Assembly (NCBI GenBank): GCA_041665485.1
Contig: JBAYIT010000002.1
Coordinates: forward strand, 197,867-261,866
DNA from: Candidatus Shapirobacteria bacterium
Lineage (GTDB): Bacteria; Patescibacteriota; Microgenomatia; UBA12405
Reading direction: 5' to 3'
DNA: 64,000 bases
Shown here: in pieces, positions 8,118 through 28,034 of the stretch
How the letters are laid out: each line of letters begins with the position of its first letter
How positions within the stretch are numbered: position 1 is the first letter of the stretch
Made by a program: the position numbers and the translations under genes
Notes under the pieces: generated by a model
The model's input: only the letters and a program-made list of their open reading frames with translations
What the model was told of the DNA's origin: nothing
The model's database searches: none

Positions 8118-8125
8118 TGTTATTT

Positions 8126-8884: not shown

Positions 8885-8886
8885 AG

Positions 8887-11800: not shown

Positions 11801-13767
11801 GAACTGCCGTTCCAATATTTCCAAGTGTTGCCGGACTCACAAGCTGTTCCCTGCCCGACACTTTTATTATCACTTCCAGCCGCGCCCAAATCATCGGTAC
11901 ATAATTGGTATTTGATGGTGGAGTTGCCAGTATGAGTGGCATCAGCCGTACAAACTGAACCAACCAGAGTTCCTTCACACAAATTGTCCCAGGTATTAAC
12001 CAGACCATTAAAATAACCGTCTTTATTGAAAACACTGTAGGTGCCTTGTTTTATCAAAGTCAGCTCATCAACTTTAACGGATTTGCCTCTTTTGACCAAA
12101 ACTCCGGCATCAACTGCGCTGTTAACACCGGTAACCGTGCCGGTTAATTTGTACCAGTTGCCGGTAACCGAAGTGTATGTGGGGCTGGTGATGGTGTTGC
12201 CGCCGTAATAAAGAGTAGCCACGGTGTCATCAACCACTCCACCAACCGGATCGGAACTCAAGTTATAGACATATGCTGAAATGGTGTAAGGAGCAGTATC
12301 GCCAACATTAACTGATTGATAGAGTTTGCCATCGACAATAGAGCCTATAGTAATTGTATTTCCACCGGCGCCGGGAAACCCGGAACTAGATGAGAAAGAT
12401 TGAGAGATTGCTACGGGACCACTGGCGCAGCGGAAACCAAGACTGTAGGCCGTACCCGTGGGCGCATAGATCAGATGCAAGGCGAACACACCCGCGCCCG
12501 TGGTATCGTTCCAAGCGCTGCCGCGTAAGAACGCGAAATTAGTGCCGTTTGTTCGAGCCCCCATATAATATTTACCCATGCCTTGAGCAGAGCCCCATGC
12601 AGTATTAGATGGCCTTAAAAGATCATAAGCTAAAGTACCGTAGTTACCGGCGCTGTTAAAGTACGGCCAATCAACATAAGCAGCAGTCTGAGCACTATCA
12701 GGTTTATTTTGTCCTAAAATTGAATCATTTGTCCACTCCCAGACGTTACCGGCCATATCCCAAATAATTTGTCCATTTGATAGAGTAAAAGTTCTTTTTT
12801 GTTTGCCTGAAGTATTATCGCAAACTGTTGCCCCTGTGGTTGTTTTATAACAGGCATAGGTGTCGTTGGTACTGGCATCAAGCGCCAGCCCCGTATCACC
12901 GTTTATGGCTTCGCTTACATTATCATTGTGGCCAGAGGCTAGCATGCCGGTTCCCGGCGTATTGCCGCATGGATAAACGCCATAACCGCCAACCGCAGTG
13001 CACCAGTTAGCGCTTTGACCTTCCGCATTGCGGGCAACTGTCATCCATTCGTTATTCGTAATCAGATGAGGGGCAGTAACTCCGACTCCCAATGACATAT
13101 TCGAACAGTAGCTTTCCGCATCGTTGGCGGTGCTGTCGTTTTGAGGAATATAGGCGATAGGAAAACCTTGGGCAGTTGAAACAACATGTTTTGCCCCAGT
13201 ACTATTACTACAGCTACATCCAGCTCCATTATTTCGGTACGTTCCGTATTGATCTCCCGTGCCATCTGCACCTGCCGAGCCATTACAGACATTACCTGAA
13301 GCGACCGTATTTCCCACATTGTCGCCGTCAGTGTCGCATTTGGCTTCATATTTCATTGCCAAAAAATTACCAGTAGGAGGATTATAGGTTGCGTTGGCGG
13401 GTACTTCTACCCAGCCGGAAGGGGGAACCGCGGCCACACTCCAAGAATCAGCATTATCTGTAAAGGCCGGATTAGCGAATTTATTAGCGCCAACTGTTCC
13501 GCCCGTTGGCTGTGCACCAGTATCATTAACCGTGGTTAAACTGGTCGTGTAGTCTGAAGCGGTCGCGCTTGAGAATGTCCATTCTTTTTTGCTGTCATTT
13601 AGGGCAAATACATTGGGAAATAGTTCTGATAAAGCCAGATAGGAACCGCCAAAAAGTCCGATTGTAATAAACAATATAGCCAACAGGTTAAACTGAAACC
13701 TGGAAAAATGAAATCGCGGCTCAAAGAAATACTTTTTAATGTTATGAATTAGGTTCATGTTGGTCAA
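8887..13767 (-). CDS. Giant (1626 aa) membrane-anchored surface protein: N-terminal signal-anchor, FGE-sulfatase/C-type-lectin-fold domain carrying the DGR variable region, long FN3/Ig-like repeat stalk; DGR target protein
   Basis: FGE/CLec motifs (NVWEWT, RGSAWN, GFRCAS); VR at codons about 411-450; C-terminal roughly 500 aa highly similar to the 23526..28031 protein. Confidence 0.8.
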   Translation of the reverse strand: MTNMNLIHNIKKYFFEPRFHFSRFQFNLLAILFITIGLFGGSYLALSELFPNVFALNDSKKEWTFSSATASDYTTSLTTVNDTGAQPTGGTVGANKFANPAFTDNADSWSVAAVPPSGWVEVPANATYNPPTGNFLAMKYEAKCDTDGDNVGNTVASGNVCNGSAGADGTGDQYGTYRNNGAGCSCSNSTGAKHVVSTAQGFPIAYIPQNDSTANDAESYCSNMSLGVGVTAPHLITNNEWMTVARNAEGQSANWCTAVGGYGVYPCGNTPGTGMLASGHNDNVSEAINGDTGLALDASTNDTYACYKTTTGATVCDNTSGKQKRTFTLSNGQIIWDMAGNVWEWTNDSILGQNKPDSAQTAAYVDWPYFNSAGNYGTLAYDLLRPSNTAWGSAQGMGKYYMGARTNGTNFAFLRGSAWNDTTGAGVFALHLIYAPTGTAYSLGFRCASGPVAISQSFSSSSGFPGAGGNTITIGSIVDGKLYQSVNVGDTAPYTISAYVYNLSSDPVGGVVDDTVATLYYGGNTITSPTYTSVTGNWYKLTGTVTGVNSAVDAGVLVKRGKSVKVDELTLIKQGTYSVFNKDGYFNGLVNTWDNLCEGTLVGSVCTADATHTGNSTIKYQLCTDDLGAAGSDNKSVGQGTACESGNTWKYWNGSSWVVAGATDGNTAAQLMDAQNPIMQHASLIATSHKISVKAIFNSESADVPKLPHISVGFTTDTNPPNVANGGSNASTILMSRSNGGTTVASNGWTNNPSPYFSWTAGADNPNESGVKGYCLSLSLDNNGDDIPDNDPATAKGLLSTSPVPTDGTTCQFIVTGTSIDLASHFTTPLSTSPKSYLFAVKVVDKSGNIFAGNSATFKFRYDDTRPLNTAYISCASGSFSNVADMNFSWPTTDSVASSDTVTEVVGSGILGWQYQINTTTGTWLGTTTEALVGINNYVPTSATSRTLTQAQDGKSDSLPHGIDSGNNIIYFRTVDIAGNISTDATIRTCNLNYGGAAPAFDGLATVTVTPSTSTSNSYALSWPEATPTNGKTVAHYYYMINTSPPSTLATLQGNATTYIDNGTSRTVSAAALPGVNKGTNTVNVVAIDNASTPNYSPSNYISASFTLDSTDPDNPGNLVASDSSIKSQSQWNVTLTWTAPTYKGAGNLTYLVYRSTDGTTFAQTGTTSGLSYVDNTPTSAKYYYKIYAKDGANAQSSGSNAVSITPTGKWTSAPSLSTGPDVGSITTKKATITWTTSRSSDSKVQYGTTSGSYNTVEPSNSSQVSSHSIQLTGLNPGTTYYYKTKWTDEDGNTGASEEKSFSTSSAPTVKDVSAKNIGLTTAIIQFTSNNASKIKIYYGTTTSFGGAKEISTSTTETTYTAELTGLLDGTKYYYKINTFDSESSEYEGTILDFTTLPRPKISNVRIQQVANTAQSTLLVTWITNTEVSSIVTYYPEGNSADARDEVNVALTKGDHRMIIRGLLPQTNYIMVVRGRDKIGNEAASDSQRLTTATDTRPPQVLELHVEGATIPPTASTAQESTAQLIVSWNTDEPATSQVEFGEGTGTTYSQKTQEDTNLTINHLVIISNLTPAKVYHVRSTSKDKVGNVGNSIDTVTITPKATDNALNLVITNLQQAFGFMGGTNK
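12364..12385 (-). promoter_or_regulatory. GC-rich hairpin (ggcgccgggaaacccgg) about 35 nt 3' of VR on the coding strand; candidate DGR target-recognition hairpin
   Basis: Stem ccggg/cccgg with aaa loop in otherwise AT-rich DNA; absent next to TR. Confidence 0.4.
12420..12535 (-). repeat. DGR variable repeat (VR), 116 bp, inside the giant surface protein gene
   Basis: 99 of 116 identity to TR at 15381..15496; all 17 mismatches are where TR has A on the coding (minus) strand; encodes ...APTGTAYSLGFRCAS. Confidence 0.85.
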
Positions 13768-14009: not shown

Positions 14010-15167
14010 TTAAGAAATAAATAAAAACCAGAGTATTATTGAGAACAACTTAAGTTGTTCATTAATTTTGGTTTTAATTTTCTCTTTTGATTTAATAATA
14101 GTTTTTTCAGTAGTGATATTTCTTTCAAATAGGTTTTTTTCTAACCCATAAGCATTGGCACGTTTTAGGTGCCCCCGAATCGAGCTGTAAGTTGCCTCAA
14201 GTTTATGCTCCTCGCCGTTCTTTAAGTTTTCATTTCTTCTCAACTTCAGCTTTTGTCTCATTCTTAAAAGTGTCTTCCCTCTAACAAGGACATGATCATA
14301 GAAAATAAGGTAGCCGACAAACGGTATCCCGCTTTTGACATTTTGGATTATGACTTTTTTAGGATGAAGACTAAGATGTAAATGACATTCCAAGAATGAT
14401 TTAAAATCCTCTTTAGTCTGTTTCAAATATTCTTTGTCAGAGTCAATAACCAAAAAGTCATCCATGTAGCGGGCATACCATCTGATATGTAAGGTTTCTT
14501 TGGCAAAATGATCAAGCTCGTTAAGATAAATATTGGCAAACAGTTGACTGGTTAAATTACCAATCGGTACACCCCGGCGCAGATCCGGATTAACCACATC
14601 TTCCGGTGCTTCAATCGGGCGGCCCTTGATATTAAAACATTTATGTTTAGTGATAATTTTTTCAATGAGCCTCTTTGTCTTATCACAAGGCACGGTTTTA
14701 TTGACAAGTGTCAGTAAGACATCCCAGGAAATGCTGGCAAAATATTTTTGAATATCCATCCTCAAACAATAAATTTGCGCGTCCTTTCCGTAAATTGACC
14801 TGGCCGCCTGTAAAAACTTTTTAATTCTGGATAAGCCGAAATGGGTGCCTTTATTCTTTCGGCAAGCGAAAGAATCGTAAATAAATTTTGATTCAAAAAG
14901 GGGCTCGATCCGAGAAACTAAAGAATGTTGGAGCACTCGGTCGCGAAATGCCGGTGCCGCCACCTTTCTTAGTTTAGGATCAGATACGGTAAAACAAACA
15001 TAGGATGAAGGTAAATAAGTCTCCAGTATTAATTCCCGTTGTAATTTAAACAAGTTGCTTTCCAGAAAAAAGCCATAATTGACGATATTACTTTTATACC
15101 GTTTGCATTTTCTGGCTGCCTGGTAGGCTGATAGCAGGTTGTTAAAATCATAGATTTCTTCATACAT
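14010..15167 (-). CDS. DGR reverse transcriptase
   Basis: RT motifs including PIGNLTSQLFANIYLNELD and YARYMDDFLV (YxDD); 385 aa with no maturase/endonuclease domain; TR and Avd-like gene immediately upstream. Confidence 0.85.
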   Translation of the reverse strand: MYEEIYDFNNLLSAYQAARKCKRYKSNIVNYGFFLESNLFKLQRELILETYLPSSYVCFTVSDPKLRKVAAPAFRDRVLQHSLVSRIEPLFESKFIYDSFACRKNKGTHFGLSRIKKFLQAARSIYGKDAQIYCLRMDIQKYFASISWDVLLTLVNKTVPCDKTKRLIEKIITKHKCFNIKGRPIEAPEDVVNPDLRRGVPIGNLTSQLFANIYLNELDHFAKETLHIRWYARYMDDFLVIDSDKEYLKQTKEDFKSFLECHLHLSLHPKKVIIQNVKSGIPFVGYLIFYDHVLVRGKTLLRMRQKLKLRRNENLKNGEEHKLEATYSSIRGHLKRANAYGLEKNLFERNITTEKTIIKSKEKIKTKINEQLKLFSIILWFLFIS

Positions 15168-15380: not shown

Positions 15381-15496
15381 CACTGGCGCAGCGGAAACCA
15401 ATATTGTTGTTCGTATTCGTGGGCGCATTGTTCAGATTCAAGGCGAACACACCCGCGTCTGTGGTATTGTTCCAATTGCTGCCGCGTTAGAACGCG
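15381..15496 (-). repeat. DGR template repeat (TR), 116 bp
   Basis: Homologous to VR at 12420..12535; Asn (AAY)-rich when read in the VR frame (NAPTNTNNNIGFRCAS); lies between the Avd-like gene and the RT. Confidence 0.85.
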
Positions 15497-15561: not shown

Positions 15562-15903
15562 TTAGTTTAGGTTTGTCCAACCGTAGAGGATTTTTCCTAT
15601 CTCATTTATTTTTTCAGCAGCATGTTTGTATTGGATAATACTCATGAAGTGAAGATCTTTTGTTAAACGGATAAGAATTCTTAGTTCATCCAGTTGATCG
15701 GACATTTGAAGTTGAATAACCTTTCTGGTGTTGTCCCTAATTTTATTAGCTTGAACCGAAGAAAGTAAAATCTTTAATCCCAACTCTTCCAAATGTTTCC
15801 CCAAAACCAGCCGATGACTTTTAGGAATCCTATTTATCAATGGATACAGCCAAAGGAGAAAGTCGTAAATTTTCTGGAAAATGATAAGTTTTTCGGCACC
15901 CAT
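15562..15903 (-). CDS. avd: Avd-like DGR accessory protein (four-helix-bundle family)
   Basis: 113 aa; KIYDFLLWLYPLINRIPKSHRLVLGKHLEE pattern resembles Avd/PF05635-type proteins; position immediately 5' of TR-RT. Confidence 0.5.
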   Translation of the reverse strand: MGAEKLIIFQKIYDFLLWLYPLINRIPKSHRLVLGKHLEELGLKILLSSVQANKIRDNTRKVIQLQMSDQLDELRILIRLTKDLHFMSIIQYKHAAEKINEIGKILYGWTNLN

Positions 15904-16022: not shown

Positions 16023-16853
16023 TTAAAAACTAACTTCTCTACCAACTTCACCTTCAAAACTATTGGCATAATTTAACAATTGCCCATGGCTGTTAAAAGC
16101 TATTTGGATGATTAGCTGTCTCATATCCTCATAGGTTTTATAACATGGCGTCCCGTCTGCCTGGTAATAAATACCTTTGGTATCTTTAGCAATGTCTTTG
16201 CTACAGGTAACCGATGGCGGATCAAGCTTAACAATTTGTTTTGCTCCCTTCCATGTAAAAAAGTAATTAGTGACTTTTTGACCTGTTTCTAACGTGTATT
16301 GGCCAATATTGATATTTCCCAAAGCCAAACTGTGGTTAGTGATAAAACTTTTTGCCAAGTCTTCTGCTTCTTTAGCAGACAGAACTTTAGCAACGGTTTC
16401 AAATTCCTGGATATTGGCGGAAACGACATGATTAGTCTGGGGATTAACCAACAAGGTGTTTAAGCCAACAGTATAAGTTTCGGATCGGGCTGGTACCAAT
16501 TTATTATTTGTTGCGTCATAAAAAGCGTCACTACACTGATATTTCACTTCAACCGTTGGTTTATCCAAAAAGTTTCTAATGGCGGTAATGGCCCGATTTT
16601 GTTCTGCTGCTGTCCGGGCAGTTAACTGGCAGATTTCTTTCCTGGCAGCTTGAGCACTCTTTTCGTCTGGATATCCGGCTGAACTTAAACTATTTTCGGT
16701 TAATTCTTTAATTCTTTTTAGATTGAGCTCTTGAGTAGAGACTAATTTTACGTTTTTAAATTCTCTATTAAATATTTTGTAAACGCCAATAGATACAAAG
16801 ATGATTAGGATTAACCCGAGTATTAGTCTCGTCCGTATAAAGTTTTTCTTCAT
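16023..16853 (-). CDS. Hypothetical N-terminally membrane-anchored protein
   Basis: Single N-terminal TM then a roughly 240-aa soluble domain; no recognisable motif. Confidence 0.4.
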   Translation of the reverse strand: MKKNFIRTRLILGLILIIFVSIGVYKIFNREFKNVKLVSTQELNLKRIKELTENSLSSAGYPDEKSAQAARKEICQLTARTAAEQNRAITAIRNFLDKPTVEVKYQCSDAFYDATNNKLVPARSETYTVGLNTLLVNPQTNHVVSANIQEFETVAKVLSAKEAEDLAKSFITNHSLALGNINIGQYTLETGQKVTNYFFTWKGAKQIVKLDPPSVTCSKDIAKDTKGIYYQADGTPCYKTYEDMRQLIIQIAFNSHGQLLNYANSFEGEVGREVSF

Positions 16854-17172
16854 AACAATATATTACGCCTTTTTAAGTATTTATAACTCTTTTTTGATTC
16901 TTTGTCCTGTCCTGCTTTCTCATTATATGGGGTCCAAACCAGCTATCAAAAGGTGGGTGTTTAAGCCTGTAGAAAAATGCCATTAGGAATAATGCTTATT
17001 ATTTAAGGAATGCATTTTTCTAACAGGCATTAAAATCCTTTTTTCTCAAACTCCGTTTTTCGAAAAAACTTTTGACATCTGTTTTTCACCCCATACCCCT
17101 CTTTCAATGGACAGGACAAAAACATGTCTATCCAGATCATTATTAGTTTTTAAGAAAGGAGGTGAAAAGCGT

Positions 17173-17616
17173 ATGTATGTGCTGCCTAGTTTCAAAGGTT
17201 ACACCGTAGATGAAAGACTGAGCGAATTTCGCAAAGCAAAATACGGTGAAAGTTTAGAGTTTATAAGTTTCAAGAGCATTAAGGGTAAAAACCTGCTCTC
17301 AAAATATAGAAAGGAACAAACTATGATGATACTTACCAAAGAAATAATAAATAAATTGCCACCGCTCTACTCTCAAGAAAATGAGCCGGATCCGATGGTA
17401 ATCTGTAAATTCTTTTTCCCTGATTTCAGCTGGACCTGGTATGTAATCGAGTTTGACGGTAAAGATACCTTCTATGGATTAGTGGACGGCTTTGAGGAAG
17501 AGTTGGGATACTTTACTCTTACTGAACTTCTGGCTAACAGAGGTCAGCTTGGGCTTCCGATAGAACGGGATCGATTCTTTACACCCAAAAGACTATCAGA
17601 AGTCAGAAAGTCCTAA
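17173..17616 (+). CDS. DUF2958-family protein (typical of conjugative and mobile elements)
   Basis: LTKEIINKLPPLYSQENEPDPMVICKFFFPDFSWTWYVIEFDG matches the DUF2958 pattern; strong RBS aaaggaggtg 8 nt upstream of ATG 17173 (track ORF starts at 17107). Confidence 0.6.
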   Translation: MYVLPSFKGYTVDERLSEFRKAKYGESLEFISFKSIKGKNLLSKYRKEQTMMILTKEIINKLPPLYSQENEPDPMVICKFFFPDFSWTWYVIEFDGKDTFYGLVDGFEEELGYFTLTELLANRGQLGLPIERDRFFTPKRLSEVRKS

Positions 17617-17620
17617 AACT

Positions 17621-17660
17621 AAACCGCAGGCGAGGGAAACCTTGCTTGCGGTTTTTTTAT
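17621..17660 (+). terminator. Intrinsic terminator after the DUF2958 gene
   Basis: Imperfect hairpin aaaccgcaggcgagg / ccttgcttgcggttt followed by a T7 run. Confidence 0.5.
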
Positions 17661-17664
17661 AGTC

Positions 17665-18426
17665 CTAATTGATTTCTGCTTTTTTGAACAAGCTGATTTC
17701 CATACCATTTTGATCAATTTGATCTGTAGTAGTTGTGTAGAAATTGGCATTGATACCGCCTTCATCTCTGATATGTCTATAGATATGTTTTTCTATAAAT
17801 GCTCTAGTTAAATCATTCCTACAGATAAAGACGATATTAGTAGGTCTGTCTTCATCATTTTCAAAGTACTCCATAAATTTGTTAATTCTGCCTCTAATGG
17901 CATAGCGAGGCATCTTTTCGCTAAATATCTCCCCGACAAAATGCTCTAAGTGTTTTTCAGCTTTATATACATAGGCAAAATCAGGGAGTAATACCCTGAT
18001 AACTCCGTCTATAGGAAAGTCTTGCTGGGTATAAAATTTAAAATCAGCATGGTCTAAAGTATCAATGTTTAAGAGTTTGAGGTAAATATCCGCGATCAAA
18101 ATTGACTTATCAATAAAGCCGTTTGATCGTCGTTTTTCCTGACGAAATTTTTTTAGTAAGGAAACATTTATATCTTTTAGAGTTTTGAGATATTTAATCG
18201 AGTTAGTTGTTAAGTAGTATTTAGCCGGTAGTGTATTTTTCTGATAAGAGTTGTCGTAGATACGGCCAACATAGTTTTTTGCAGTTAAATCTTTTAGCCA
18301 GACATTGATATTTCGGTGATCTTTATTTTTAAGTAGTTTTTGAATTTGAATTCTATTTAAGAAGCGGAATCTATATAACAAGAGAATAATCTCTTTTTGT
18401 TTATTAGTTATATTAGGTATAGTCAT
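17665..18426 (-). CDS. Replication-relaxation family protein (plasmid/ICE-associated, N-terminal wHTH)
   Basis: N-terminal NKQKEIILLLYRFRFLNRIQIQKLL wHTH-like segment and about 250 aa length typical of PF13814-like proteins; adjacent to the coupling ATPase. Confidence 0.45.
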   Translation of the reverse strand: MTIPNITNKQKEIILLLYRFRFLNRIQIQKLLKNKDHRNINVWLKDLTAKNYVGRIYDNSYQKNTLPAKYYLTTNSIKYLKTLKDINVSLLKKFRQEKRRSNGFIDKSILIADIYLKLLNIDTLDHADFKFYTQQDFPIDGVIRVLLPDFAYVYKAEKHLEHFVGEIFSEKMPRYAIRGRINKFMEYFENDEDRPTNIVFICRNDLTRAFIEKHIYRHIRDEGGINANFYTTTTDQIDQNGMEISLFKKAEIN

Positions 18427-18578
18427 ATTAATTTTTAGTAACCTACCTGTATCCTCCCTTTATTTAGGGAGGAGTGTGTTCTCTCCTTATATATAAGGAT
18501 ATAGAGACTACAGAATATTTATTTATTGCCTTTATATAGCGCTAATATTATATCCTATTATCCCAGCCTGCTGGGATA

Positions 18579-21248
18579 TCAAAGTGCCTTGATTTGTTCA
18601 AACTTATTCTCATTACCCGCGATAGTTTTCTTTGTTTTGAGAGTTACTGGTACACCTTGTTTAATCCCTGTTTTAGTGCCGTACAATGATCTTGAGTTGC
18701 TAATAGCTTTTTCCTTTGTGGCATTACTTCCGGTAATTGTAAAATCGTCAATCTCACCAGTAAAAGAATCTTGAGGTTCGAGGGCGTTTATTTTGATATA
18801 GAAATGATATGAGGGTAGGTTGCCAATTTGGCCTTCTTCTACTTGGGGCGCAAAAATTGGCAGGATTTTACTTTCATCCTTAGGGCTTGAGGTTCTAAAA
18901 GAGATAATTGTTCCGCTATTTCCAATGATCGTATCCAATAGATCGTCATCTAACTGGACAGTGTTTTGATGGGCTAGAATGGCACATAGTCGGTATTTTC
19001 GAGCCTCAGATAACACTTGAGCAAAGGTGGTTGTAGCAAAGTTTTGGAATTCATCAACATATAGGAAAAAGTCGGTTCGGTTACTTTCCAATAGATTAAT
19101 TCTTCGAAAAGCAGCCAGTTCCAGTTTGGCAATTATTAAGCTACCTAAAAAGAAAGAATTGTCCTCACCGATTTTTCCCTTGGACAGATCACATAAAAGT
19201 ATCTTCTTATTATCCATAATATCGTTAAAATCCAGCTTAGTTTTGGGTTGATTCAAAATATTACGCGTTAGGGTAGTGGTTAAGAATCGACCCAATTTAT
19301 TGGTAATGGGTGAAATTTGTTCCGCTCTCTGGTAACTTCCGGCAGCCCCAAACTCATTTTTCCAAAAGGTCTTTAAGACTTCATCAGTTAATTCATTTAC
19401 AACTCGTTTACGGTATTTGGTATCAGTTAGAAGTTCATATATGGTAAATAGAGTCGGTGTTTCAAGTTCTAAGGCAGTTAAAATGACATTTCTTAATATA
19501 TGCTCCATTCGGGGACCGGAATATCTGGCTTCGTATAGCTTATGAAATACGGATATAAGACTTGAGGTAATAAAATCTTTTTCCCGCTCTCTTTCAACTG
19601 GTGGTAAATCTTTAGGTAATTCCAGAAAATTTAGACCAATCGGATATTCGATATCATAGGGATTAAAGTAAACCACATCTTCGATTCGGTCTTTGGGGAT
19701 TATTTCCAGAAGTCTTTTTGATAAATCTCCATGAGGATCTATCACTGCCAAACCTTTACCATGGCCTAAATCTTGATAAATCATTTGTAGAAGTAAGGTA
19801 GTTTTACCTGTACCAGTTGCTCCGATCATGTAGGTATGGCGTCTTCGTTCTTCCAGTGTTTGACCAATAACTGTTTCTGTCTCGCCGTATTTGTTTTTGG
19901 CAAAAGTAATGTCAAAACCAATATCGGCTTTTTTTAATGATAAAGGAGGTGGTAATTGAGGACTTTTTATTTTTTGTAAATCTTCTGTTTGCGTAGTTGT
20001 AGTAAAAGGAAAGTGATACAAAGAAGAAAGTTCAGTTACCGATAAAATCGAGCTATTTGTAAGTACAGATAGGCGGTCAGTTAAAAGAATTTTGAAAATG
20101 TTGTCAAAAACCTTATTATGAAAAATCAAAGCTGATGAATCCTTAACCTGAAACGACTGATTGGGAGTGGCAAAAGTGTCAAAAGACGAGGTAAGACCGC
20201 TTAAACGTCTCTTATTGTTTTCTTGATCTTTAGTTTGGGAAATAAACCGAATGGTAACATCAAATAACGGCTGGTTAATCTTATCTTGAATGGTTTGATA
20301 AAGCTGTTGTTTTGGTAAACCAATTTCGTTTAAGCGTTTATTATTACCACCATCAAAGACCCACCAAGCGAGAAGTTGGGCATGATTATCTTTATCGAGA
20401 AACCAATCGATAAGAGTAAATGGTGAAAGAATTAAAACCAAAAATAGTCTAAAAATTAGATTAATAGCATCATAAAGTAAATTAACAACTGAAAGATTCA
20501 AACCGTTTCTAATTTTGTGTGAGATATCAGTGTTTCCCATAAATAACTCGCTAATTTCCCTGTTGTGGTGAGTAATTCTCGGATAGGTATTTTCTTGAAT
20601 CGGTGAACAGATGAATTGAAGAGAAACTAGCTCATTCTCAAGCAGTTTAGTCATGTGGGCTGTCACATATGCAATTGGATCATACTCATTAAGAGATGCT
20701 TGGCTTTGAAGCGGATATACATAAGAGCTTTTTAAACTAATTTCTTTGATACCAATAGGAAAACTAGTTAAACTATCATTTAAATAATCGGTAGTTTCTC
20801 TGATCTCAACTCCCGGAAGATAAGCTAACAGTGTTTTTTTAACAACGGATTTATCTTTATCTGAAATTCGTAGAATATACCTAATACCCAGTTGTTTGGT
20901 GGATACTAATTCAAAAGTTAGTTTTCTTTTAAAACCTATTATCCGCTCAATAAATGAATTTTGTTTTCCCAGCGAATGAAATAGGGTATAAAGCTCATTG
21001 GTTGATAAGGGGCTTTTTAAGGTTTTATCTGTTGGTCTGACTTCTAGGTATGCATAGCTTTCTGTAATTGCTTTTTTTATCCTGATATAGAGCAAAATGA
21101 CAGATACAACTCCTAAAAAGGAAAATATCGTTATCAGTAATACGGGAAGTGCAGATAAATATTGGCTAATTGGTGCGGTAAATAACCATGAGAGATAGCT
21201 TGGAAAAACTTTGGAATAATCTATAGTGGCAATGTTGCTGTCCATCAT
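18579..21248 (-). CDS. Type IV coupling protein (VirD4/TraG/TraD-like ATPase) with N-terminal TM helices
   Basis: Two N-terminal TM helices; Walker A GATGTGKTT followed by IDPHGDL; Walker B-like LYVDEFQNF; 889 aa. Confidence 0.7.
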   Translation of the reverse strand: MMDSNIATIDYSKVFPSYLSWLFTAPISQYLSALPVLLITIFSFLGVVSVILLYIRIKKAITESYAYLEVRPTDKTLKSPLSTNELYTLFHSLGKQNSFIERIIGFKRKLTFELVSTKQLGIRYILRISDKDKSVVKKTLLAYLPGVEIRETTDYLNDSLTSFPIGIKEISLKSSYVYPLQSQASLNEYDPIAYVTAHMTKLLENELVSLQFICSPIQENTYPRITHHNREISELFMGNTDISHKIRNGLNLSVVNLLYDAINLIFRLFLVLILSPFTLIDWFLDKDNHAQLLAWWVFDGGNNKRLNEIGLPKQQLYQTIQDKINQPLFDVTIRFISQTKDQENNKRRLSGLTSSFDTFATPNQSFQVKDSSALIFHNKVFDNIFKILLTDRLSVLTNSSILSVTELSSLYHFPFTTTTQTEDLQKIKSPQLPPPLSLKKADIGFDITFAKNKYGETETVIGQTLEERRRHTYMIGATGTGKTTLLLQMIYQDLGHGKGLAVIDPHGDLSKRLLEIIPKDRIEDVVYFNPYDIEYPIGLNFLELPKDLPPVEREREKDFITSSLISVFHKLYEARYSGPRMEHILRNVILTALELETPTLFTIYELLTDTKYRKRVVNELTDEVLKTFWKNEFGAAGSYQRAEQISPITNKLGRFLTTTLTRNILNQPKTKLDFNDIMDNKKILLCDLSKGKIGEDNSFFLGSLIIAKLELAAFRRINLLESNRTDFFLYVDEFQNFATTTFAQVLSEARKYRLCAILAHQNTVQLDDDLLDTIIGNSGTIISFRTSSPKDESKILPIFAPQVEEGQIGNLPSYHFYIKINALEPQDSFTGEIDDFTITGSNATKEKAISNSRSLYGTKTGIKQGVPVTLKTKKTIAGNENKFEQIKAL

Positions 21249-21347
21249 AATTTAATAAGACTTGGCAGAACAATCTTTCCCGTTAAATTAGTGTGGAGTA
21301 TACCAAATCCTATAAGAATATTAAAGCGACGTAGTGCATAAATCCAC

Positions 21348-21695
21348 TTGACAACTATCCCGAACAAGATATATACTATCTCTAACGAGATAGTTATGGA
21401 AACACTAAAACTACAACAATATCCAGCATTTGAAACACCGCAGAAGTTAGCTACTTCGTATAATCCGCAGCAATCAATCGAAACAGCGATAAATAACATA
21501 TTCCCGTTACAGTCAGAAGAAAACAAAACTTCAAGGATGAGAAAAACTTTGGGAGAATCTGCCCAGTCTCTTTCAAACGAACAAATAGAAACAATCACGT
21601 CAGAATTTCAGTTTTTAATTGACTCCTGGATGGATGAGTTCGAAAAGGAGGTCTTTTGTGGATCGACGTTAAAAGAAATTTTAAATGAAGGCTGA
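21348..21695 (+). CDS. Hypothetical small protein upstream of the serine recombinase (possible directionality factor)
   Basis: ORF with ordinary composition co-directional with the recombinase; the opposing ORF 21245..21598 looks spurious (Cys-rich, odd composition). Confidence 0.3.
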   Translation: MTTIPNKIYTISNEIVMETLKLQQYPAFETPQKLATSYNPQQSIETAINNIFPLQSEENKTSRMRKTLGESAQSLSNEQIETITSEFQFLIDSWMDEFEKEVFCGSTLKEILNEG

Positions 21696-21697
21696 AT

Positions 21698-23230
21698 ATG
21701 GAAATCATCAAAAGCGATAACAGTATTAAAGGAGCAATCATGTATCTAAGGGTATCGACCGAAGAACAAGTCGATAATTTTTCGCTGGAAACTCAAGAAA
21801 AGATTTGTAGACAAGAAGCGGAACGTCGAAACATGGAAGTCATTCAAATCTTTAAAGAGGAAGGTCGATCAGCAAAAAACATTACAGGCAGACCCGTATT
21901 AATTGAAATGCTTGAGTTTTGTCGAAAAAATAAACGGACTGTTGATGCTTTGATCGTGTATCGTTTAGACCGTCTTTCTCGTCAAACCGTTGACTTCCTC
22001 GCTATTCGGAAAAAACTATCAGAAAATCAAATCGCTATTATTTCGACATCAGAGCCAACAGGAAACAGCCCGACAGAAAGATTTATTGAAACGATGTTGG
22101 CGAGTTTCGCTCAAATGGATAACGATGTCCGAAGTGAAAGAACAAAAAATGGCTTAAAAGCACGATTTATGTCTGGTTTAACCAGTGGCGTACCACCAAT
22201 TGGATATATAAGCGAAAATGGCTACGCAGTCAAAGACCCTAAAACTTGGGATAATATCAAAAAGTCCTGGGAACTCATGGGAACAGGAACAAAATCACTC
22301 AAAGAAATGGCTGTTATCATGAATGCATGGGGAGTAAGGCAGCATTTTCATGGCAAGGAACATATTGTAAGGCATCAGGCCATTGGTCGAATGTTTCGGA
22401 ACAAATACTACATCGGTATATTGACTTCAGAGAGATATCCCGAAGAAGTCAAAGGACAACATCTTCCCATGGTTACAGAAGCCCTCTTCTATCGCATTCA
22501 AGCCATCATTGACGGTAGAAATACCAATATTAATGTACCAAACGTACGACATAATCGTGATAACCCGGAATTTCCCCTTAGAAGAATCGTAAAATGTGGT
22601 CTTTGTGACAACCCTATGACTGCTGGATGGAGCAAAGGGAAAAATGCCCGCTATGCTTATTATCGTTGTCAAAGATGTAATAAAGCTCCATCAATTCCAG
22701 CAGATAAAATTAACAATTCCGCCATTAGCTTTTTATCAACCATTTCTCCGACTGACGAGGCTCTTAAAGCTTTTGTTGGTCTTCTTCGTCACACTTACTA
22801 TCAAAGGATTGCTCGACTCCAAAAACGCAAAGATGAGGCAGATGGCGAGTTGAAACGCTTAAAAACCCTTCGACAGTCTTTAATTGAAAAGAATCTTAAC
22901 GGAATATATTCAGACGAGATTTTTCGTGAACAAAATAAACTGATTGAGGAACAGATTGCTAATGTCCAAGTTACCAAAGATGACACATTACTTGCAAAAT
23001 TTAATCTCCAAGATATCGTCAAATTTATGCTGGATAAATTCGCCAATTTGGGAAGAACGTATCAAATGTCAAACCTAAACCAGATCAGAATGCTTCTGTG
23101 TTCAATATGCCCCTCTGGATTGAAGTGGGACAATTTAAGCTACTCGAACACCGAGATTAGCCCGATATATAAATCAATTCGTATGTTTGAAGCAGAGGTC
23201 TGCTCCTTTGGTGCCGGGAAGAGGACTTGA
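21698..23230 (+). CDS. Large serine recombinase (integrase), probable true start at ATG 21740
   Basis: N-terminal resolvase domain with catalytic Ser motif YLRVSTEEQ; recombinase domain; zinc ribbon CGLCDN...YYRCQRC; coiled-coil; 3' end overlaps tRNA-Leu. Confidence 0.8.
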   Translation: MEIIKSDNSIKGAIMYLRVSTEEQVDNFSLETQEKICRQEAERRNMEVIQIFKEEGRSAKNITGRPVLIEMLEFCRKNKRTVDALIVYRLDRLSRQTVDFLAIRKKLSENQIAIISTSEPTGNSPTERFIETMLASFAQMDNDVRSERTKNGLKARFMSGLTSGVPPIGYISENGYAVKDPKTWDNIKKSWELMGTGTKSLKEMAVIMNAWGVRQHFHGKEHIVRHQAIGRMFRNKYYIGILTSERYPEEVKGQHLPMVTEALFYRIQAIIDGRNTNINVPNVRHNRDNPEFPLRRIVKCGLCDNPMTAGWSKGKNARYAYYRCQRCNKAPSIPADKINNSAISFLSTISPTDEALKAFVGLLRHTYYQRIARLQKRKDEADGELKRLKTLRQSLIEKNLNGIYSDEIFREQNKLIEEQIANVQVTKDDTLLAKFNLQDIVKFMLDKFANLGRTYQMSNLNQIRMLLCSICPSGLKWDNLSYSNTEISPIYKSIRMFEAEVCSFGAGKRT

Positions 23231-23293
23231 ACCTCCATGGATTGCTCCACACGCACCTCAAGCGTGCTTGTCTACCAATTTCAACATCCCGGC
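23209..23293 (-). tRNA. tRNA-Leu (anticodon GAG), long variable arm, CCA encoded
   Basis: Acceptor gccggga/tcccggc, anticodon stem cacgc/gcgtg with loop ttGAGgt, T-arm ggttcaagtcc. Confidence 0.75.
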
Positions 23294-23388
23294 TCTAGTC
23301 GCTATTATACCTAATGATTTATCAATTTTATACTTCTTCGTAATCTGACAACACGTTTACGACAACTGCAAACTGTAAACCGATCTAG

Positions 23389-23461
23389 TGGCTGTTGAGG
23401 GACTCGAACCCCCGACCGCCCCGATGTAAACGGGATGCTCTACCAACTGAGCTAAACAGCC
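23389..23461 (-). tRNA. tRNA-Val (anticodon TAC)
   Basis: Acceptor ggctgtt/aacagcc, D-arm gctcagttggtagagc, anticodon loop ttTACat, T-arm gggttcgagtccc. Confidence 0.75.
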
Positions 23462-23525: not shown

Positions 23526-26500
23526 ATGCAATATCAACTATGTATAAAATACATATTAGATATACGTTATTATCTCCCCAAACATCGGACAAAAGACTTG
23601 CCTTTCTCTCGGATAACTGACACAATGATAATGGTCTTTATTCAGACCATTTTTGTCATGCCCATAACCCTTTTTCATCATTTTTTAACCAAAAAAATCA
23701 CCATTGCCAGATGGCAACTTAATTTCTTTGCCTTTATTTGTCTAACCACCGGTCTAATTACAGGATCCTATCTCGCCCTAAAAGGAATCACGGGCATTTT
23801 TGCCACTTCCAACTCTTCAATAACCAAAACTACCGATACTGATTTTAATCAGGGAACATTGTCCTCACTTTCAATTTCCGGTACCGGAAATTCTGCCACC
23901 GTTCTCCTTTCCGGAACAAGTGGATTTTATAACCGTAATTGGGGTTATCGAAAACAAATAATAATCGACCACACTAAAGTGTCAGCCGATTTAACGGACT
24001 TCCCTGTCCTCATCTCCATAACCAACGCCAGCCTCAAAAGCACCTCCAACGGCGGTCATGTCAGTCAAGACGATGGTGACGATATCTTATTTATCGCCTC
24101 CGACAATCTAACCAAACTAAGTCACGAAATTGAAAAATATGACAGCGCCACTGGGCAATTAACTACTTGGGTCAAAATACCCACTCTTTCAAGCTCTGTT
24201 GACACCACCATCTACCTCTACTACGGCAATGTCAGCACCGCTTCAATGCAAAACCCCACCGATGTTTGGAGTAACGGTTATGTTGGTATCTGGCATTTTT
24301 CTACCGGAGCCACCGGCCTTTCCGGAATAGATTCAACTTCCAATGAATACAACATGACTTTAAATGGAGTCACCGCCGGATCAGGCACCATCAACGGTGG
24401 AGCCAATTTTGACGGTAATCACTATTTATCAATTGGAACAAACATTTCTGCCCTGGACAACGCTAGTAATCTCACCATTGAACTTTGGACAAACTTAAAT
24501 GCCTATGGTTCTTATGGAACTGCTTTTTTTCAAAAACTGTCAATCAATAACTGGTCTAACGACATTTTATTTTTCGTCGGTAATGACTCATCTGTAAACC
24601 TTCAAATTGACAAAGGCGCCGACGGAGGGCCTTCTTATCTCGCCACCGACCTTCGCAACAGACAAGTTCACTTGGTAGGTACTTTTGATGGCACTCAAAC
24701 TGGAAACGCCAACCGAATGAAAATCTACGAAAACGGAGTCCAAAAAACACTCTCGTTTGGCTCCTGGTCGGCACCAACAACAACGGCTGATATGAACGGT
24801 TATAGTCAAAAAATCGGCCAATATACCAACGACGGTCCATATAACGCCTATGGTGTTTTTGATGAATTTCGTCTTTCTAGTGTTGCCCGCACCGCCGAAT
24901 GGGTAACCACAGAATACAACAACCAGCTTTCTCCAGCCACTTTTGTTTCTTTCGGTTCGGAAGAATCAGTTTTAGCCACTTCCGGCACTTGGGAATCGCC
25001 AACAAATTCAAATATTATCGATCTAATTTGGAATGGTGGTTGGGGTATCGGAACAAGTGAATCTACCGCCTTTTCGGCAACAATCTCCGGTGTTGGCGCC
25101 AGCAACACTATCGCCTTCGCCATCAAAACAGCCAATTCAGTCGCCAACCTCACTTCAGCCAATTACATTAATCTCGGCACGGCCAATTCCGGCACCACAT
25201 TTACCAAAACAAAGGCTGAATTAGATGCCCTAGGCGTTGCCACCGGCACGGCCAGATATGTTCAGGTCAAAGCCACTTTTGCCCAAACTTCCGACATCAC
25301 TCCTCAATTACATAGTTTTACTCTTTCCTATCTTTCCGACAACTCTGGCCCGGAAACTAACGCTACCAACATTGTCATGCTTCGCGATGTTGGCGGATCA
25401 GCTGTCGCTCAAAATGGTTGGACCAACAACTCCGCTCCTTACTTTTCCTGGACCGCCGGAGCCGACTCTCAATCCAATATTAAAGGATACTGTCTCTCTA
25501 TCACTGCCGGCAATACTAACCCCAATCTGGGAACCGTAATTAGTGACTTTCTCTCCGACAATACCCCATCCACTCTCGATAGCACTCATATTTCATCAGC
25601 CGGCACTCAATGTGGCAACGGCGCCGGATTTCTGGTCACCACCAACAACATTGATTTTGCTCAAACTAAATACCGGGGAACCGCCGTAAGTAAATCATGG
25701 TTAACTTCCTCAAATACCGCCTACTATCTATATATCAAAGCCATCGATAATACCGGAAATATCGCCCCCGATCCCAACACCTCATTCTATTTTCGTTTTG
25801 ACAACACTAATCCGACTAACCCCACTTATTTCTCCATGCCCAGCGACTGGGTTTCTACCCGATCCGTCTCACTTTTATGGGCCTCATCAGGCGACGATGG
25901 CCCGCAAGACAGCAATTCTGATATTGCCGGCCTCCAATATCGAATCGGCACCACTGGTCTCTGGTATGGTGATTCTCATTCCGGAACACAAGACAACACT
26001 GACCTATTAGCCAACGACGGCAATTACAGCATCCAACAGACTCCTGATTTTACTTCTCTGTCTGAAGGAACAAACAATATCTATTTACGCACCTGGGACA
26101 ACGCCGGAAACGCCTCCTCCTCCTATATTTCCGGAACTTTAAAAATCAACACCATCTCTCCCTCTGCCCCCAGAAATTTAAATGTCGAACCAACCGACAA
26201 CACCAGTAATTCCTACTCTTTTACTTGGGACACTCCTTCTACCTTTACCGGCCAAGCCAGCAATCTTAGTTATTGTTACACCATCAATACTCTTCCCACT
26301 TCCACCACCTGTACATATACCGGAATTGGCACCACCTCACTTTCCGCTGATGCCTTTGCCACCCAGCCGGAAACAAACACTCTTTACCTTGTCGCCAAAG
26401 ACGAGGCAGGCAACATTAATTACAATGCCTATACCTCCATTGCTTTCACTTATTCCGGTACTGCCCCGGGGTTGCCACGAAACGTTGACGTCTCAGACAT

Positions 26501-28031
26501 CTCTATTAAGTCAACTTCCAACTGGAAGTTAGCTATTTCTTGGGATATTCCTTCCTCGGTTGGCGCCGGAGTTTCCTCATATAAAATTTATCGTTCAACC
26601 ACCAACACCACTTGTTCCGCCAGTCCTTCCTTGTTTACTTTAATTGGAACCAGTGCCGGAACCTCCTATTCAGACATTAGTCTCTCTCAAGTTACTTATT
26701 ATTACTGCATTAAAGCCTGTGACAGTGCCTCAAATTGTTCTGCCTATTCTTCAACTGTTTCCAAGATTCCAACCGGAAAATACTTCACCTCAGCCGGCCT
26801 CACTTCCGGTCCAGCAGCCGGATCAATTACCACCAAAAAAGCCACTATCACCTGGAGTACTGACCGTTCTTCGGATTCAAAAATTGCTTTCGGCACAGCC
26901 AGCAATTCTTATGGATCCGACGAAGTCTCAAACTCCTCCCAAGTCACTTCTCACACTGTCAATCTAACCAACCTTAAGGCAGGAACAACCTACTACTACA
27001 AAGCCAAGTGGACAGACGAAGATGGTAACACCGGCACCTCCGACGAGAAAACTTTTACCACCGAATCAGCTCCCACCGTCAAGGACGTTTTAGCAAAAAA
27101 TATTGGTCTATCCACTGCTACCATCCAATTTACTTCCAAAGGCGCCACCAAAATCAAAATTTATTACGGAACAAACACTAGTTTTGGAGGTGGCAAAGAA
27201 ATTTCTACTTCTACTACTGAAACTACCTATACTACCGAATTAGTTGGCCTCAACGATGGCACTAAATACTATTACAAAATTAATACTTTCGATAGCGAGT
27301 CGGGTGAGTATGAAGGAACTATTCTCGATTTCACCACCCTTCCTCGTCCCAAAATCAGTAATGTTCGAATCCAGCAAGTCGCCAATACCGCCCAATCTAC
27401 CATTCTGGTTACCTGGTCCACCAACACCGAAGTCTCTTCAATTATCACTTATTACCCTCAGAATCAACCAGATGGTGCCAAAGATGAAGTCAACATCGCT
27501 CTTATTAAAGGCGATCACCGTTTGATTATTCGCGGTCTTTTACCCGAAACCGACTATATTTTAGTAGTTAAAGGTCGTGACAAAATTGGCAATGAAGCCA
27601 CCAGCGATTTTCAAAGTCTAACCACCGCCACCGACACTCGTCCGCCACAAATTTCTGAACTTCGGGTTGAAAGTTCAAATATTCCTCCCGTAACTCAAAC
27701 CGCTCAAAACCAAACGGCCCAGCTCGTAGTTTCTTGGAACACCGACGAGCCGGCTACCACCCAAGTTGAATTCAGTGAAGGTACTGGCGTCACTTACAGC
27801 CAAAAAACCCAAGAAGACAGCAATCTAACCCTCAATCATATCGTCATTATTTCCAATCTCTCTCCCTCAAAGGTTTATCACCTCCGTGCCATTTCCCGCG
27901 ACAAAGCCGAGAACTTAAGTAGCTCGATTGATGTTGTCACCATCACTCCTAAGGCCACTGAAAACGCCCTTAATCTCGTTATCACCAACCTTGAACAAGC
28001 CTTCAGCTTTTTGGGGGGGTTAAAAGACTAA
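23526..28031 (+). CDS. Giant (about 1500 aa) membrane-anchored surface protein paralog with N-terminal LamG/ConA-like domain and FN3-like repeats; no DGR variable region
   Basis: TM segment with GSYLAL motif as in the 8887..13767 protein; LamG-like region; C-terminal roughly 500 aa near-identical in pattern to the paralog; true start possibly downstream of 23526. Confidence 0.75.
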   Translation: MQYQLCIKYILDIRYYLPKHRTKDLPFSRITDTMIMVFIQTIFVMPITLFHHFLTKKITIARWQLNFFAFICLTTGLITGSYLALKGITGIFATSNSSITKTTDTDFNQGTLSSLSISGTGNSATVLLSGTSGFYNRNWGYRKQIIIDHTKVSADLTDFPVLISITNASLKSTSNGGHVSQDDGDDILFIASDNLTKLSHEIEKYDSATGQLTTWVKIPTLSSSVDTTIYLYYGNVSTASMQNPTDVWSNGYVGIWHFSTGATGLSGIDSTSNEYNMTLNGVTAGSGTINGGANFDGNHYLSIGTNISALDNASNLTIELWTNLNAYGSYGTAFFQKLSINNWSNDILFFVGNDSSVNLQIDKGADGGPSYLATDLRNRQVHLVGTFDGTQTGNANRMKIYENGVQKTLSFGSWSAPTTTADMNGYSQKIGQYTNDGPYNAYGVFDEFRLSSVARTAEWVTTEYNNQLSPATFVSFGSEESVLATSGTWESPTNSNIIDLIWNGGWGIGTSESTAFSATISGVGASNTIAFAIKTANSVANLTSANYINLGTANSGTTFTKTKAELDALGVATGTARYVQVKATFAQTSDITPQLHSFTLSYLSDNSGPETNATNIVMLRDVGGSAVAQNGWTNNSAPYFSWTAGADSQSNIKGYCLSITAGNTNPNLGTVISDFLSDNTPSTLDSTHISSAGTQCGNGAGFLVTTNNIDFAQTKYRGTAVSKSWLTSSNTAYYLYIKAIDNTGNIAPDPNTSFYFRFDNTNPTNPTYFSMPSDWVSTRSVSLLWASSGDDGPQDSNSDIAGLQYRIGTTGLWYGDSHSGTQDNTDLLANDGNYSIQQTPDFTSLSEGTNNIYLRTWDNAGNASSSYISGTLKINTISPSAPRNLNVEPTDNTSNSYSFTWDTPSTFTGQASNLSYCYTINTLPTSTTCTYTGIGTTSLSADAFATQPETNTLYLVAKDEAGNINYNAYTSIAFTYSGTAPGLPRNVDVSDISIKSTSNWKLAISWDIPSSVGAGVSSYKIYRSTTNTTCSASPSLFTLIGTSAGTSYSDISLSQVTYYYCIKACDSASNCSAYSSTVSKIPTGKYFTSAGLTSGPAAGSITTKKATITWSTDRSSDSKIAFGTASNSYGSDEVSNSSQVTSHTVNLTNLKAGTTYYYKAKWTDEDGNTGTSDEKTFTTESAPTVKDVLAKNIGLSTATIQFTSKGATKIKIYYGTNTSFGGGKEISTSTTETTYTTELVGLNDGTKYYYKINTFDSESGEYEGTILDFTTLPRPKISNVRIQQVANTAQSTILVTWSTNTEVSSIITYYPQNQPDGAKDEVNIALIKGDHRLIIRGLLPETDYILVVKGRDKIGNEATSDFQSLTTATDTRPPQISELRVESSNIPPVTQTAQNQTAQLVVSWNTDEPATTQVEFSEGTGVTYSQKTQEDSNLTLNHIVIISNLSPSKVYHLRAISRDKAENLSSSIDVVTITPKATENALNLVITNLEQAFSFLGGLKD

Positions 28032-28034
28032 TTT

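Follow-up and report, generated by a model that had tools for sequence, protein, structure and literature searches.

A probable integrative element at the tRNA-Leu gene of a Shapirobacteria genome, and its relatives in other Patescibacteria

The stretch of DNA analysed here, hereafter the window, comprises 64,000 nucleotides from Candidatus Shapirobacteria bacterium, a member of the Patescibacteriota (GenBank assembly GCA_041665485.1, contig JBAYIT010000002.1, positions 197,867 to 261,866). Its left part carries, in order, a cluster resembling a type IV secretion system (T4SS), an operon for an ABC exporter and a large surface protein together with a diversity-generating retroelement (DGR), and genes for a DUF2958 protein, a replication-relaxation (Replic_Relax) protein, a VirD4-type coupling protein (T4CP) and a large serine recombinase, the last of which runs into a tRNA-Leu(GAG) gene. 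The open reading frames (ORFs) and their Pfam matches agree with the gene list in an initial annotation of the window, which had proposed that the left 23 kb may be one integrative conjugative or mobilisable element whose cargo is the DGR. That proposal is supported by attachment-site boundaries, by base composition and by a gene module that recurs in other genomes. At a probability of about three in four, we consider window positions 1 to 23215, together with a further 4,778 bp to the left, to be a single 28-kb element of the integrative and conjugative element (ICE) type, lying between tRNA-Leu(GAG) and tRNA-Gln.

Boundaries of the element

The sequence was extended leftward through an exact-protein look-up, which led to the ENA contig ERZ27249449 k141_819467 (334,682 bp). 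This contig adds 9,854 bp to the left of the window and agrees with it over a 10,917-nt overlap with 0 mismatches. The source contig including its upstream stretch is called L001, and minus coordinates denote positions left of window position 1.

The right end of the element lies within tRNA-Leu(GAG), the integration target, which was located by a tRNA scan at 23209 to 23293 on the minus strand. The attR core TGGTGCC (23209 to 23215, plus strand) comprises the CCA end and the start of the acceptor stem of this tRNA. The initial annotation had placed the other boundary upstream of the window, and it is found there at -4778, marked by a left-end motif shared with related elements; the attL core at this site is TAGTGCC (L001 15696-15690). 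The integrated element thus occupies window positions 1 to 23215, continues 4,778 bp to the left, and measures 27,987 bp from attL to attR. Beyond TAGTGCC, the left arm can be aligned gap-free with the left ends of its relatives, and the left-end pattern of the family, described below, has its single match at -4778 when both strands of the 73.8-kb extended sequence are searched.

A direct repeat of the tRNA-Leu 3' end, also predicted in the initial annotation, is present as this 7-bp core with one mismatch, and not as a long repeat. Neither the window nor the upstream 10 kb contains a long direct repeat of this tRNA end, as is expected of a serine recombinase, and the upstream 10 kb of the relatives likewise lack long repeats of tRNA 3' ends. 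Two other candidates for attL, a gapped alignment of -4897 to -4803 with the whole tRNA-Leu and an 8-nt repeat CTTTGGTG at -4897, were dropped in favour of the motif-supported site at -4778.

Outside attL lies a tRNA-Gln(ttg) gene (L001 15847-15919) in the same orientation as tRNA-Leu and as tRNA-Val(TAC), which the tRNA scan places at 23388 to 23461 on the minus strand, as a chromosomal neighbour outside the element. The chromosomal setting is a Val-Leu-Gln tRNA cluster, and the reconstructed empty site consists of tRNA-Leu, a spacer of about 150 nt and tRNA-Gln. This spacer contains a promoter-like box akin to the box between tRNA-Val and tRNA-Leu. An 18-position box that matches at 16 of 18 positions, CAACTGC(A/C)AAC(T/G)GTAAAC on the plus strand, occurs at window positions 23363 to 23380 and at L001 15716-15733 (-4815 to -4798); it stands upstream of both tRNA-Leu and tRNA-Gln and may be a repeated host tRNA promoter element.

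Base composition, which the initial annotation had suggested comparing across the region, switches at both ends of the element. From left to right on the window's plus strand, GC skew changes from -0.303 in the left flank (-9853 to -4779) to +0.024 within the element and then to -0.228 in the right flank (23216 to 64000). All six 4-kb chunks of the element have a higher skew than all ten host chunks (p 0.00025), and a tetranucleotide discontinuity likewise supports the element limits.

Logan contigs assembled from SRR6484324 end near the element junctions, although not at them. One of them, L002, ends at L001 15792, about 100 nt outside attL, and another, L006, starts at window position 23433, inside tRNA-Val.

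Related loci and their attachment sites

Database searches gave 1,317 homologs of the recombinase, of which the best 120 share at least 57% identity with it. A scan of one genome per species yielded 80 loci with 52 to 72% identity to the recombinase, in Roizman-, Levy-, Gottesman-, Davies-, Curtiss- and Woesebacteria, Berkelbacteria, Saccharibacteria and CPR2. Two copies are present in several of the genomes. The recombinase ORF enters the 3' end of a convergent tRNA gene at about 66 of these 80 loci. These tRNAs are of at least 12 types (Leu, Glu, Pro, Gly, Phe, Arg, Lys, Ala, Ser, Met, Gln and Ile). A gene order conserved on the chromosome without boundaries was the outcome that the initial annotation had set against mobility; it is countered by the recurrence of the module in 80 loci, where it lies beside a variety of tRNAs, with several copies to a genome.

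Gene content near the recombinase was compared in those 47 loci whose upstream flank extends for at least 9 kb. A small ORF corresponding to window positions 21396 to 21695 is present in all 47, Replic_Relax in 34, a T4CP in 29 and one or the other of these two in 39, whereas VirB4 is present in 10 and a DGR-type reverse transcriptase in seven. Over all 80 loci, reverse transcriptases number nine and Avd proteins eight. Locus L009 has the same gene order as the window from the DGR target gene to the recombinase, and in two loci from other classes, L040 and L048, an ABC exporter, a large FN3 protein and a reverse transcriptase again occur together as cargo, with Avd in L048. VirB4 and an M23 peptidase occur together with the recombinase in L026 and five other loci. 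Relatives that could be delimited at both ends are mostly 5 to 12 kb in length and lack a T4SS. In IMG/VR, one relative of the element was found, and it too is integrated. Some records with loci of Patescibacteria type (for example L008, L010, L012, L013 and L023) bear the title "uncultured Gammaproteobacteria bacterium", probably through mislabelling at submission.

In kind the element is a known one, an ICE or integrative and mobilisable element (IME) that combines a large serine integrase with a MOBC-type module. A compact module of VirD4, MOBC and a serine integrase defines the streptococcal IME_Class_8 (Coluzzi et al. 2017, PMC5357655). By gene order, positions 17665 to 23230 of the window resemble that class, with a VirD4 coupling protein, a PF13814/MOBC protein, a small gene and a serine integrase at the element end. 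Unlike the streptococcal elements, those described here reside in Patescibacteria, use the 3' ends of many tRNA genes as targets, apparently have attP inside the integrase ORF and, in the window, carry T4SS genes and a DGR. A full-text literature search of incomplete coverage found no account of such elements or of integration cutting the gene of a serine integrase, and the family is apparently undescribed. Two features exceed what could be found in the literature, namely the family-wide targeting of tRNA 3' ends and the position of attP, which appears to lie within the integrase gene.

Recognisable left ends in the family consist of a tRNA-end-like TGGTNNN, a (C/G)ACTT and, at a fixed distance, TTCGAAC. 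When 1.29 Mb were searched with the pattern T[GA]G-N20-T[CT]GAA-N12-TGG, 14 matches fell on the recombinase (plus) strand and one on the minus strand, as compared with 1.2 expected, and most of the 14 adjoin an HTH gene. A looser pattern, TGG-N11-[CG]ACTT, was not strand-specific (36 versus 36 matches) and was replaced by the longer one. Exact attL/attR repeats measure 11 nt in L021, 14 nt in L077 and at least 25 nt in L046, each just outside an HTH_3/31 gene. The T(C/T)GAA box, which forms the T-loop in the tRNA, is at +18 there, counted from the end; in the left arm it is at +23 at every site with the box.

Cores of 6 to 14 nt, flanked by B-type and P-type arms that carry the same motif at different spacing, are as found in the large serine integrases of phages and ICEs. 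In that group an offset of 5 bp between P-type and B-type arm motifs was reportedly noted by Rutherford et al. in 2013. These enzymes have been described as positioning themselves differently on attP-type and attB-type half-sites (PMC5499577).

The arrangement of the motifs suggests how targets may be chosen. The target half-site would be the tRNA 3' end, with its CCA/acceptor end and the T-loop box TCGAA 18 nt from that end, and the left arm of the element would present the same TCGAA box 5 bp farther out. The enzyme may therefore read the T-loop and acceptor end that are common to all tRNA genes, which would explain the range of target tRNAs and would also explain how attR could serve again as a target. 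Known large serine integrases usually target one protein-coding or intergenic site, unlike the present family, which uses tRNA 3' ends of many identities.

Tandem left-end sites are present in L077 (-8065 and -4847) and L080 (-8997 and -7648), and remnants of a recombinase 3' end precede the left ends in L046 (-9966), L092 and L093. Together, the tandem ends and the remnants suggest repeated insertion at the same tRNA, with the older copy decaying.

The integrase gene across the junction

In its integrated form the recombinase is a 510-amino-acid protein encoded at 21698 to 23230 on the plus strand, with matches to Resolvase (PF00239, E 1.6e-33), Recombinase (PF07508) and Zn_ribbon_recom (PF13408). 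Its nearest solved integrases are SPbeta SprA (E 2.7e-6), to which it aligns over residues 13 to 429, and A118 Int. Like these and further large serine integrases of phages and ICEs (LI Int, TP901-1 and Bxb1), it carries a coiled coil embedded in an architecture of Resolvase, Recombinase and zinc-ribbon domains. The gene is preceded by one for a 99-amino-acid helical protein (21396 to 21695, plus strand), which is conserved in 77 of the 80 loci and all 47 with flank, and which has a promoter-like site ahead of it at 21348 to 21377.

The initial annotation had described the recombinase as abutting tRNA-Leu and followed by two tRNA genes. Both tRNAs are present, but the ORF overlaps the 3' end of tRNA-Leu by 22 nt, with its stop codon in the T-arm, so that the last seven codons and the stop are the antisense of the acceptor and T arms.

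When the right end of the element is joined to the left end at the core, the recombinase frame stays open. At the junction in the window the protein continues from ...SFGA into PEELVFEHFLPWIQKIMLAYEIRSTDETDPFPPKGTMFSKGYYTKNVN*, giving 554 amino acids instead of 510. An in-frame continuation was obtained in 12 of 16 automated reconstructions in relatives, with a tail conserved as ALExLxFEHLLxWL...; the window and L056 had been mis-joined by the script, and both proved to be in frame when checked by hand, which brings the count to about 14 of 17. The N-termini of database ORFs with a match to the tail (P0241-P0249) are unrelated; similarity among these ORFs begins exactly at AP(E/D), which corresponds to the core, and they end at the same conserved stop position. 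Between the window and L093, 49 codons of the tail differ by eight synonymous and seven non-synonymous changes. A search of a representative library with P0241 returned short ORFs only. Recombinase homologs of 550 to 582 amino acids were considered as tail-bearing forms and rejected, being products of read-through into the tRNA.

These patterns of frame and codon conservation are best explained if, in the excised form, the integrase ends in the left-end tail of about 48 amino acids, and if integration truncates the enzyme; attP appears to lie inside the integrase gene. We propose that the 510-amino-acid recombinase carried out the insertion, with the attP core in the 3' end of its own gene. 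The excised form would encode a 554-amino-acid enzyme, and integration would replace its last 48 residues with four to seven encoded by the tRNA. That the tail acts in activity or in directionality is a guess.

To our knowledge, integration does not cut into the gene of any previously described large serine integrase. Among other recombinases, SSV-type archaeal integrases are said to have attP within their coding sequence, with integration altering the C-terminus of the product (She et al.), and in mycobacteriophages with integration-dependent immunity the repressor gene is reportedly cut by integration (Broussard et al. 2013). The probable placement of attP within the integrase ORF in the present family resembles these systems in logic and not by homology, for they use tyrosine recombinases, unlike the serine recombinase found here.

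Transfer genes, alternative explanations and cargo

The T4SS-like cluster that the initial annotation had noted at the start of the window proved to hold recognisable mating-pair-formation genes, all on the minus strand. They encode an M23 peptidase that is a candidate T4SS cell-wall hydrolase (147 to 917; PF01551, E 3.6e-14), a VirB4-like ATPase (914 to 3049; P-loop_TraG, E 2.4e-25, AAA_10 and DUF87), a 270-amino-acid membrane protein that is possibly TrsD-like (3046 to 3858; a sub-threshold TraC_F_IV match, E 0.012) and adjoins VirB4 in L026 as well, a VirB6/TrbL-like channel protein (3836 to 5599; PF04610, E 8e-4, below the cut-off, and a weak TrbL_3 match), and a VirB2/TrbC pilin-like protein (5629 to 5958; PF04956, 33.5 bits versus a cut-off of 27.9). 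VirB4, VirB2 and M23 thus score above their cut-offs, and VirB6 is weak.

Near the other end of the element, and also on the minus strand, lie the Replic_Relax protein (17665 to 18426; PF13814, 33.4 bits versus a cut-off of 25.3), a candidate relaxase of the MOBC type, and the 889-amino-acid T4CP (18579 to 21248), whose matches to TrwB_AAD_bind and TraG-D_C exceed their cut-offs and are accompanied by one to DUF87. PF13814 corresponds to the MOBC relaxase class (PMC5357655). In an alignment of 31 Replic_Relax sequences, examined for the restriction-endonuclease-like catalytic core of MOBC relaxases, a conserved P-D ... E pattern is only partly present. Single-sequence AlphaFold models were too poor for a fold search, with predicted local distance difference test scores of 63 for the 99-amino-acid protein and 41 for Replic_Relax. 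Between the T4CP stop and the Replic_Relax start, an inverted repeat with an 8-bp stem and no T run (18452 to 18473) is a possible nick-site hairpin. To judge from this gene content, the T4CP, the Replic_Relax/MOBC-type protein and the VirB2, VirB6, VirB4 and M23 proteins would conjugate the element, and we infer that it may transfer itself.

A survey of T4SSs in Patescibacteria (Quinonero-Coronel et al. 2025, PMC12102498) counted 5,713 T4CPs, mostly far from virB4, and 109 relaxases, and its text makes no mention of recombinases or tRNA junctions. The window resembles the systems in that survey in having VirB4, a VirB2-like pilin, a divergent VirB6 and a T4CP away from virB4, and differs from them in that these genes reside in att-delimited DNA with a relaxase candidate.

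Several observations weigh against an ICE-type element. The att repeat in the window is only 7 bp and contains one mismatch. The predicted attP junction, GAGGTCTGCTCCTTTGGTGCCCCGGAGGAGCTTGTATTTGAAC, and the predicted attB junction, GTTAACGGTGAACGGTAAT(A/G)GTGCCGGGAAGAGGACTTGAACC, each had 0 exact matches in JGI metagenome contigs, and the circular junction that the initial annotation had suggested seeking was therefore not recovered there. An uninterrupted recombinase-plus-tail ORF was found neither in the 80 loci, nor among the best 120 homologs, nor in the representative library, which was clustered at 50% identity and could hide such an ORF. VirB6 and the 270-amino-acid protein are weak assignments, the PF13814 match is confined to the N-terminal part of the Replic_Relax protein, the 31-sequence alignment has no clean nuclease or catalytic motif, and no oriT was identified for the element. 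In addition, the 2025 survey concluded that T4SSs of Patescibacteria are mostly chromosomal and without relaxases, and may serve other roles, and it read the T4CP genes too as chromosomal and repurposed (PMC12102498).

The alternative that fares best, although we regard it as less likely than not, is that the region is an integrated island made mobile by its recombinase, with a T4SS that would serve epibiotic or host contact (effector or DNA uptake) and not conjugation of the element itself. The T4CP and Replic_Relax proteins would then confer mobilisability alone, making it an IME or "symbiosis island" and not an ICE. Epibiotic growth of Saccharimonadia is reported to require T4SS genes, and most T4SS clusters of Patescibacteria have no relaxase (PMC12102498). 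A role in host contact would also suit the scarcity of VirB4, which lies within 10 kb of the recombinase in only 10 of the 47 flanked relatives as compared with 39 for Replic_Relax or T4CP, the small size and missing T4SS of most relatives delimited at both ends, and a cargo that includes a DGR-diversified surface protein. However, VirB2, VirB6, VirB4, the hydrolase, the T4CP and the relaxase candidate lie within one att pair and make up the full minimal set of the monoderm type, and the pairing of VirB4 and M23 with the recombinase recurs in L026 and the five other loci.

Somewhat less probable again is a once-mobile element that is now fixed, its truncated recombinase inactive and the region vertically inherited. 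The failure to find attB and attP junctions in the JGI contigs fits such an element, as do the mismatch in the 7-bp core, the decayed-element remnants that are common at the left ends of relatives, and the four strain-bearing samples, in all of which the site is occupied and the sequence identical. A look-up with the right-flank ABC ATPase returned the same strain alone, with the site occupied; an exosortase query for the empty site gave no relatives in genome contigs; and homologs of the prenyltransferase-like/GIY-YIG flank protein were at most 61% identical and in contexts that are not syntenic. Fixation and decay are harder to reconcile with the intact state of all ORFs of the element, including the 48-codon tail that is in frame and ends at a conserved stop, with a GC skew that has not drifted towards the host value, and with the high identity of the recombinase across the family.

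Very improbable, and largely refuted, is a conserved chromosomal arrangement that was never mobile, in which the recombinase is a resolvase or invertase, perhaps inverting DNA between paralogous operons at 6 to 13.7 kb and 23.5 to 30.6 kb, and the skew change reflects an inversion or replication landmark: inverted paralogous operons do flank 13.8 to 23.5 kb and the cumulative GC skew peaks near 23 kb, but the skew anomaly spans -4.8 to 23.2 kb instead of 13.8 to 23.5 kb, is about zero instead of mirrored and returns to the host value on the left, the paralogs are just 52 to 62% identical as proteins, the recombinase has the three-domain architecture of large serine integrases, its relatives occupy at least 12 tRNA types with variable cargo and copy number, and the flanking genes have no conserved synteny in the nearest relatives found.

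Patescibacteria, also called candidate phyla radiation (CPR) bacteria, are regarded as poor in classical mobile elements. An att-delimited family that combines an integrase with a coupling protein and a MOBC-type candidate represents a testable route of horizontal transfer in these organisms, and it suggests where their orphan T4CPs belong. A broader proposal, which we hold tentatively and at somewhat less than even odds, is that a phylum-wide family of ICEs and IMEs has an integrase that reads the universal T-loop/CCA end and contains attP in its own gene, with the exchange of tails acting as a switch of activity or directionality. Such a family, and not the chromosome, could explain many of the orphan T4CPs, which number in the thousands, the missing relaxases and part of the T4SS and DGR repertoire of the phylum, and could be a main route of gene flow in its reduced genomes. 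If true, a C-terminus that depends on the state of integration would be a new form of control for this class of serine integrase, and the family might be a source of integrases with a broad and predictable target.

The DGR reported in the initial annotation has the components that define such systems: a reverse transcriptase (14010 to 15167; RVT_1, E 6e-17), a template repeat (TR; 15381 to 15496) that is 86% identical to the variable repeat (VR; 12420 to 12535), the accessory protein bAvd (15562 to 15903; PF22296, E 1.2e-21) and a target with a C-type-lectin-like domain, all on the minus strand. All 16 of the 16 mismatches between TR and VR are at TR adenines, and the operon is active-looking. 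The target is a protein of 1626 amino acids (8887 to 13767, minus strand) with an FGE-sulfatase/C-type-lectin-like domain and FN3-type repeats, and is co-operonic with a MacB/FtsX-type permease and an ABC ATPase (6090 to 8884, minus strand).

The initial annotation had considered a DGR on a conjugative element to be noteworthy. Such DGRs are already known from an ICE of Legionella pneumophila (PMC5758913) and from Bacteroides, in which transfer was shown (bioRxiv 10.1101/2024.11.15.621889). As in those cases, the DGR is ICE cargo that diversifies a surface or adhesive protein. The Legionella and Bacteroides elements belong to other ICE families with other integrases, whereas the present host is a Patescibacterium with a reduced genome and the target is an FN3-rich protein linked to a MacB-type ABC system. 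The recurrence of DGR, surface protein and ABC exporter as cargo suggests an exchange between lineages of hypervariable functions in host attachment.

From the window outward, the upstream stretch encodes a 280-amino-acid protein, an ABC-3C-like trio, an HTH_3 regulator and a PLDc_2 nuclease, followed farther out by tRNA-Gln(ttg) and then by ordinary-looking genes. The trio consists of DUF2326/PDC-M68B (PADLOC), MC6 and a CTD9-like protein of 341 amino acids. This candidate defence trio, together with the nuclease and the regulator, occupies L001 11641-15533 at the left end of the element, and PLDc_2 and HTH genes mark the left end in L021 and L093 too. Besides the DGR, which diversifies the large surface protein linked for export to the MacB-type ABC system, the element would carry candidate defence genes of ABC-3C-like type as cargo.

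Between the DGR and the transfer genes lies a gene for a 276-amino-acid protein with an N-terminal membrane anchor (16023 to 16853, minus strand), which matches no family and has no homolog in the 80 related loci. It is followed by the DUF2958 gene (17107 to 17616, plus strand; E 9e-13), which adjoins Replic_Relax in six relatives. The perfect ribosome-binding site that the initial annotation assigned to this gene, a AAGGAGGTG box, is present at 17157 to 17165, although it stands 8 nt ahead of an internal ATG at about 17174 and not ahead of the ORF start; translation is therefore likelier to begin at about 17174. A terminator-like hairpin with a 15-bp stem and a T run (17621 to 17654, plus strand) separates the convergent DUF2958 and Replic_Relax genes.

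An inverted paralog of the DGR-target operon is located on the chromosome across tRNA-Val and tRNA-Leu, at 23526 to 30582 on the plus strand versus 6090 to 13767 on the minus strand. It encodes a 1501-amino-acid FN3/DUF2341 protein, an ABC ATPase and an FtsX permease, with protein identities of 52 to 62%, and it has no C-type-lectin domain and no DGR. Small GIY-YIG genes adjoin tRNA genes in the window (about 36238 to 36483), in L017, L019, L027 and L029, and at L001 15955-17166. In one case in the source genome, GIY-YIG is fused to a prenyltransferase-like domain, homologs of which occur elsewhere without GIY-YIG.

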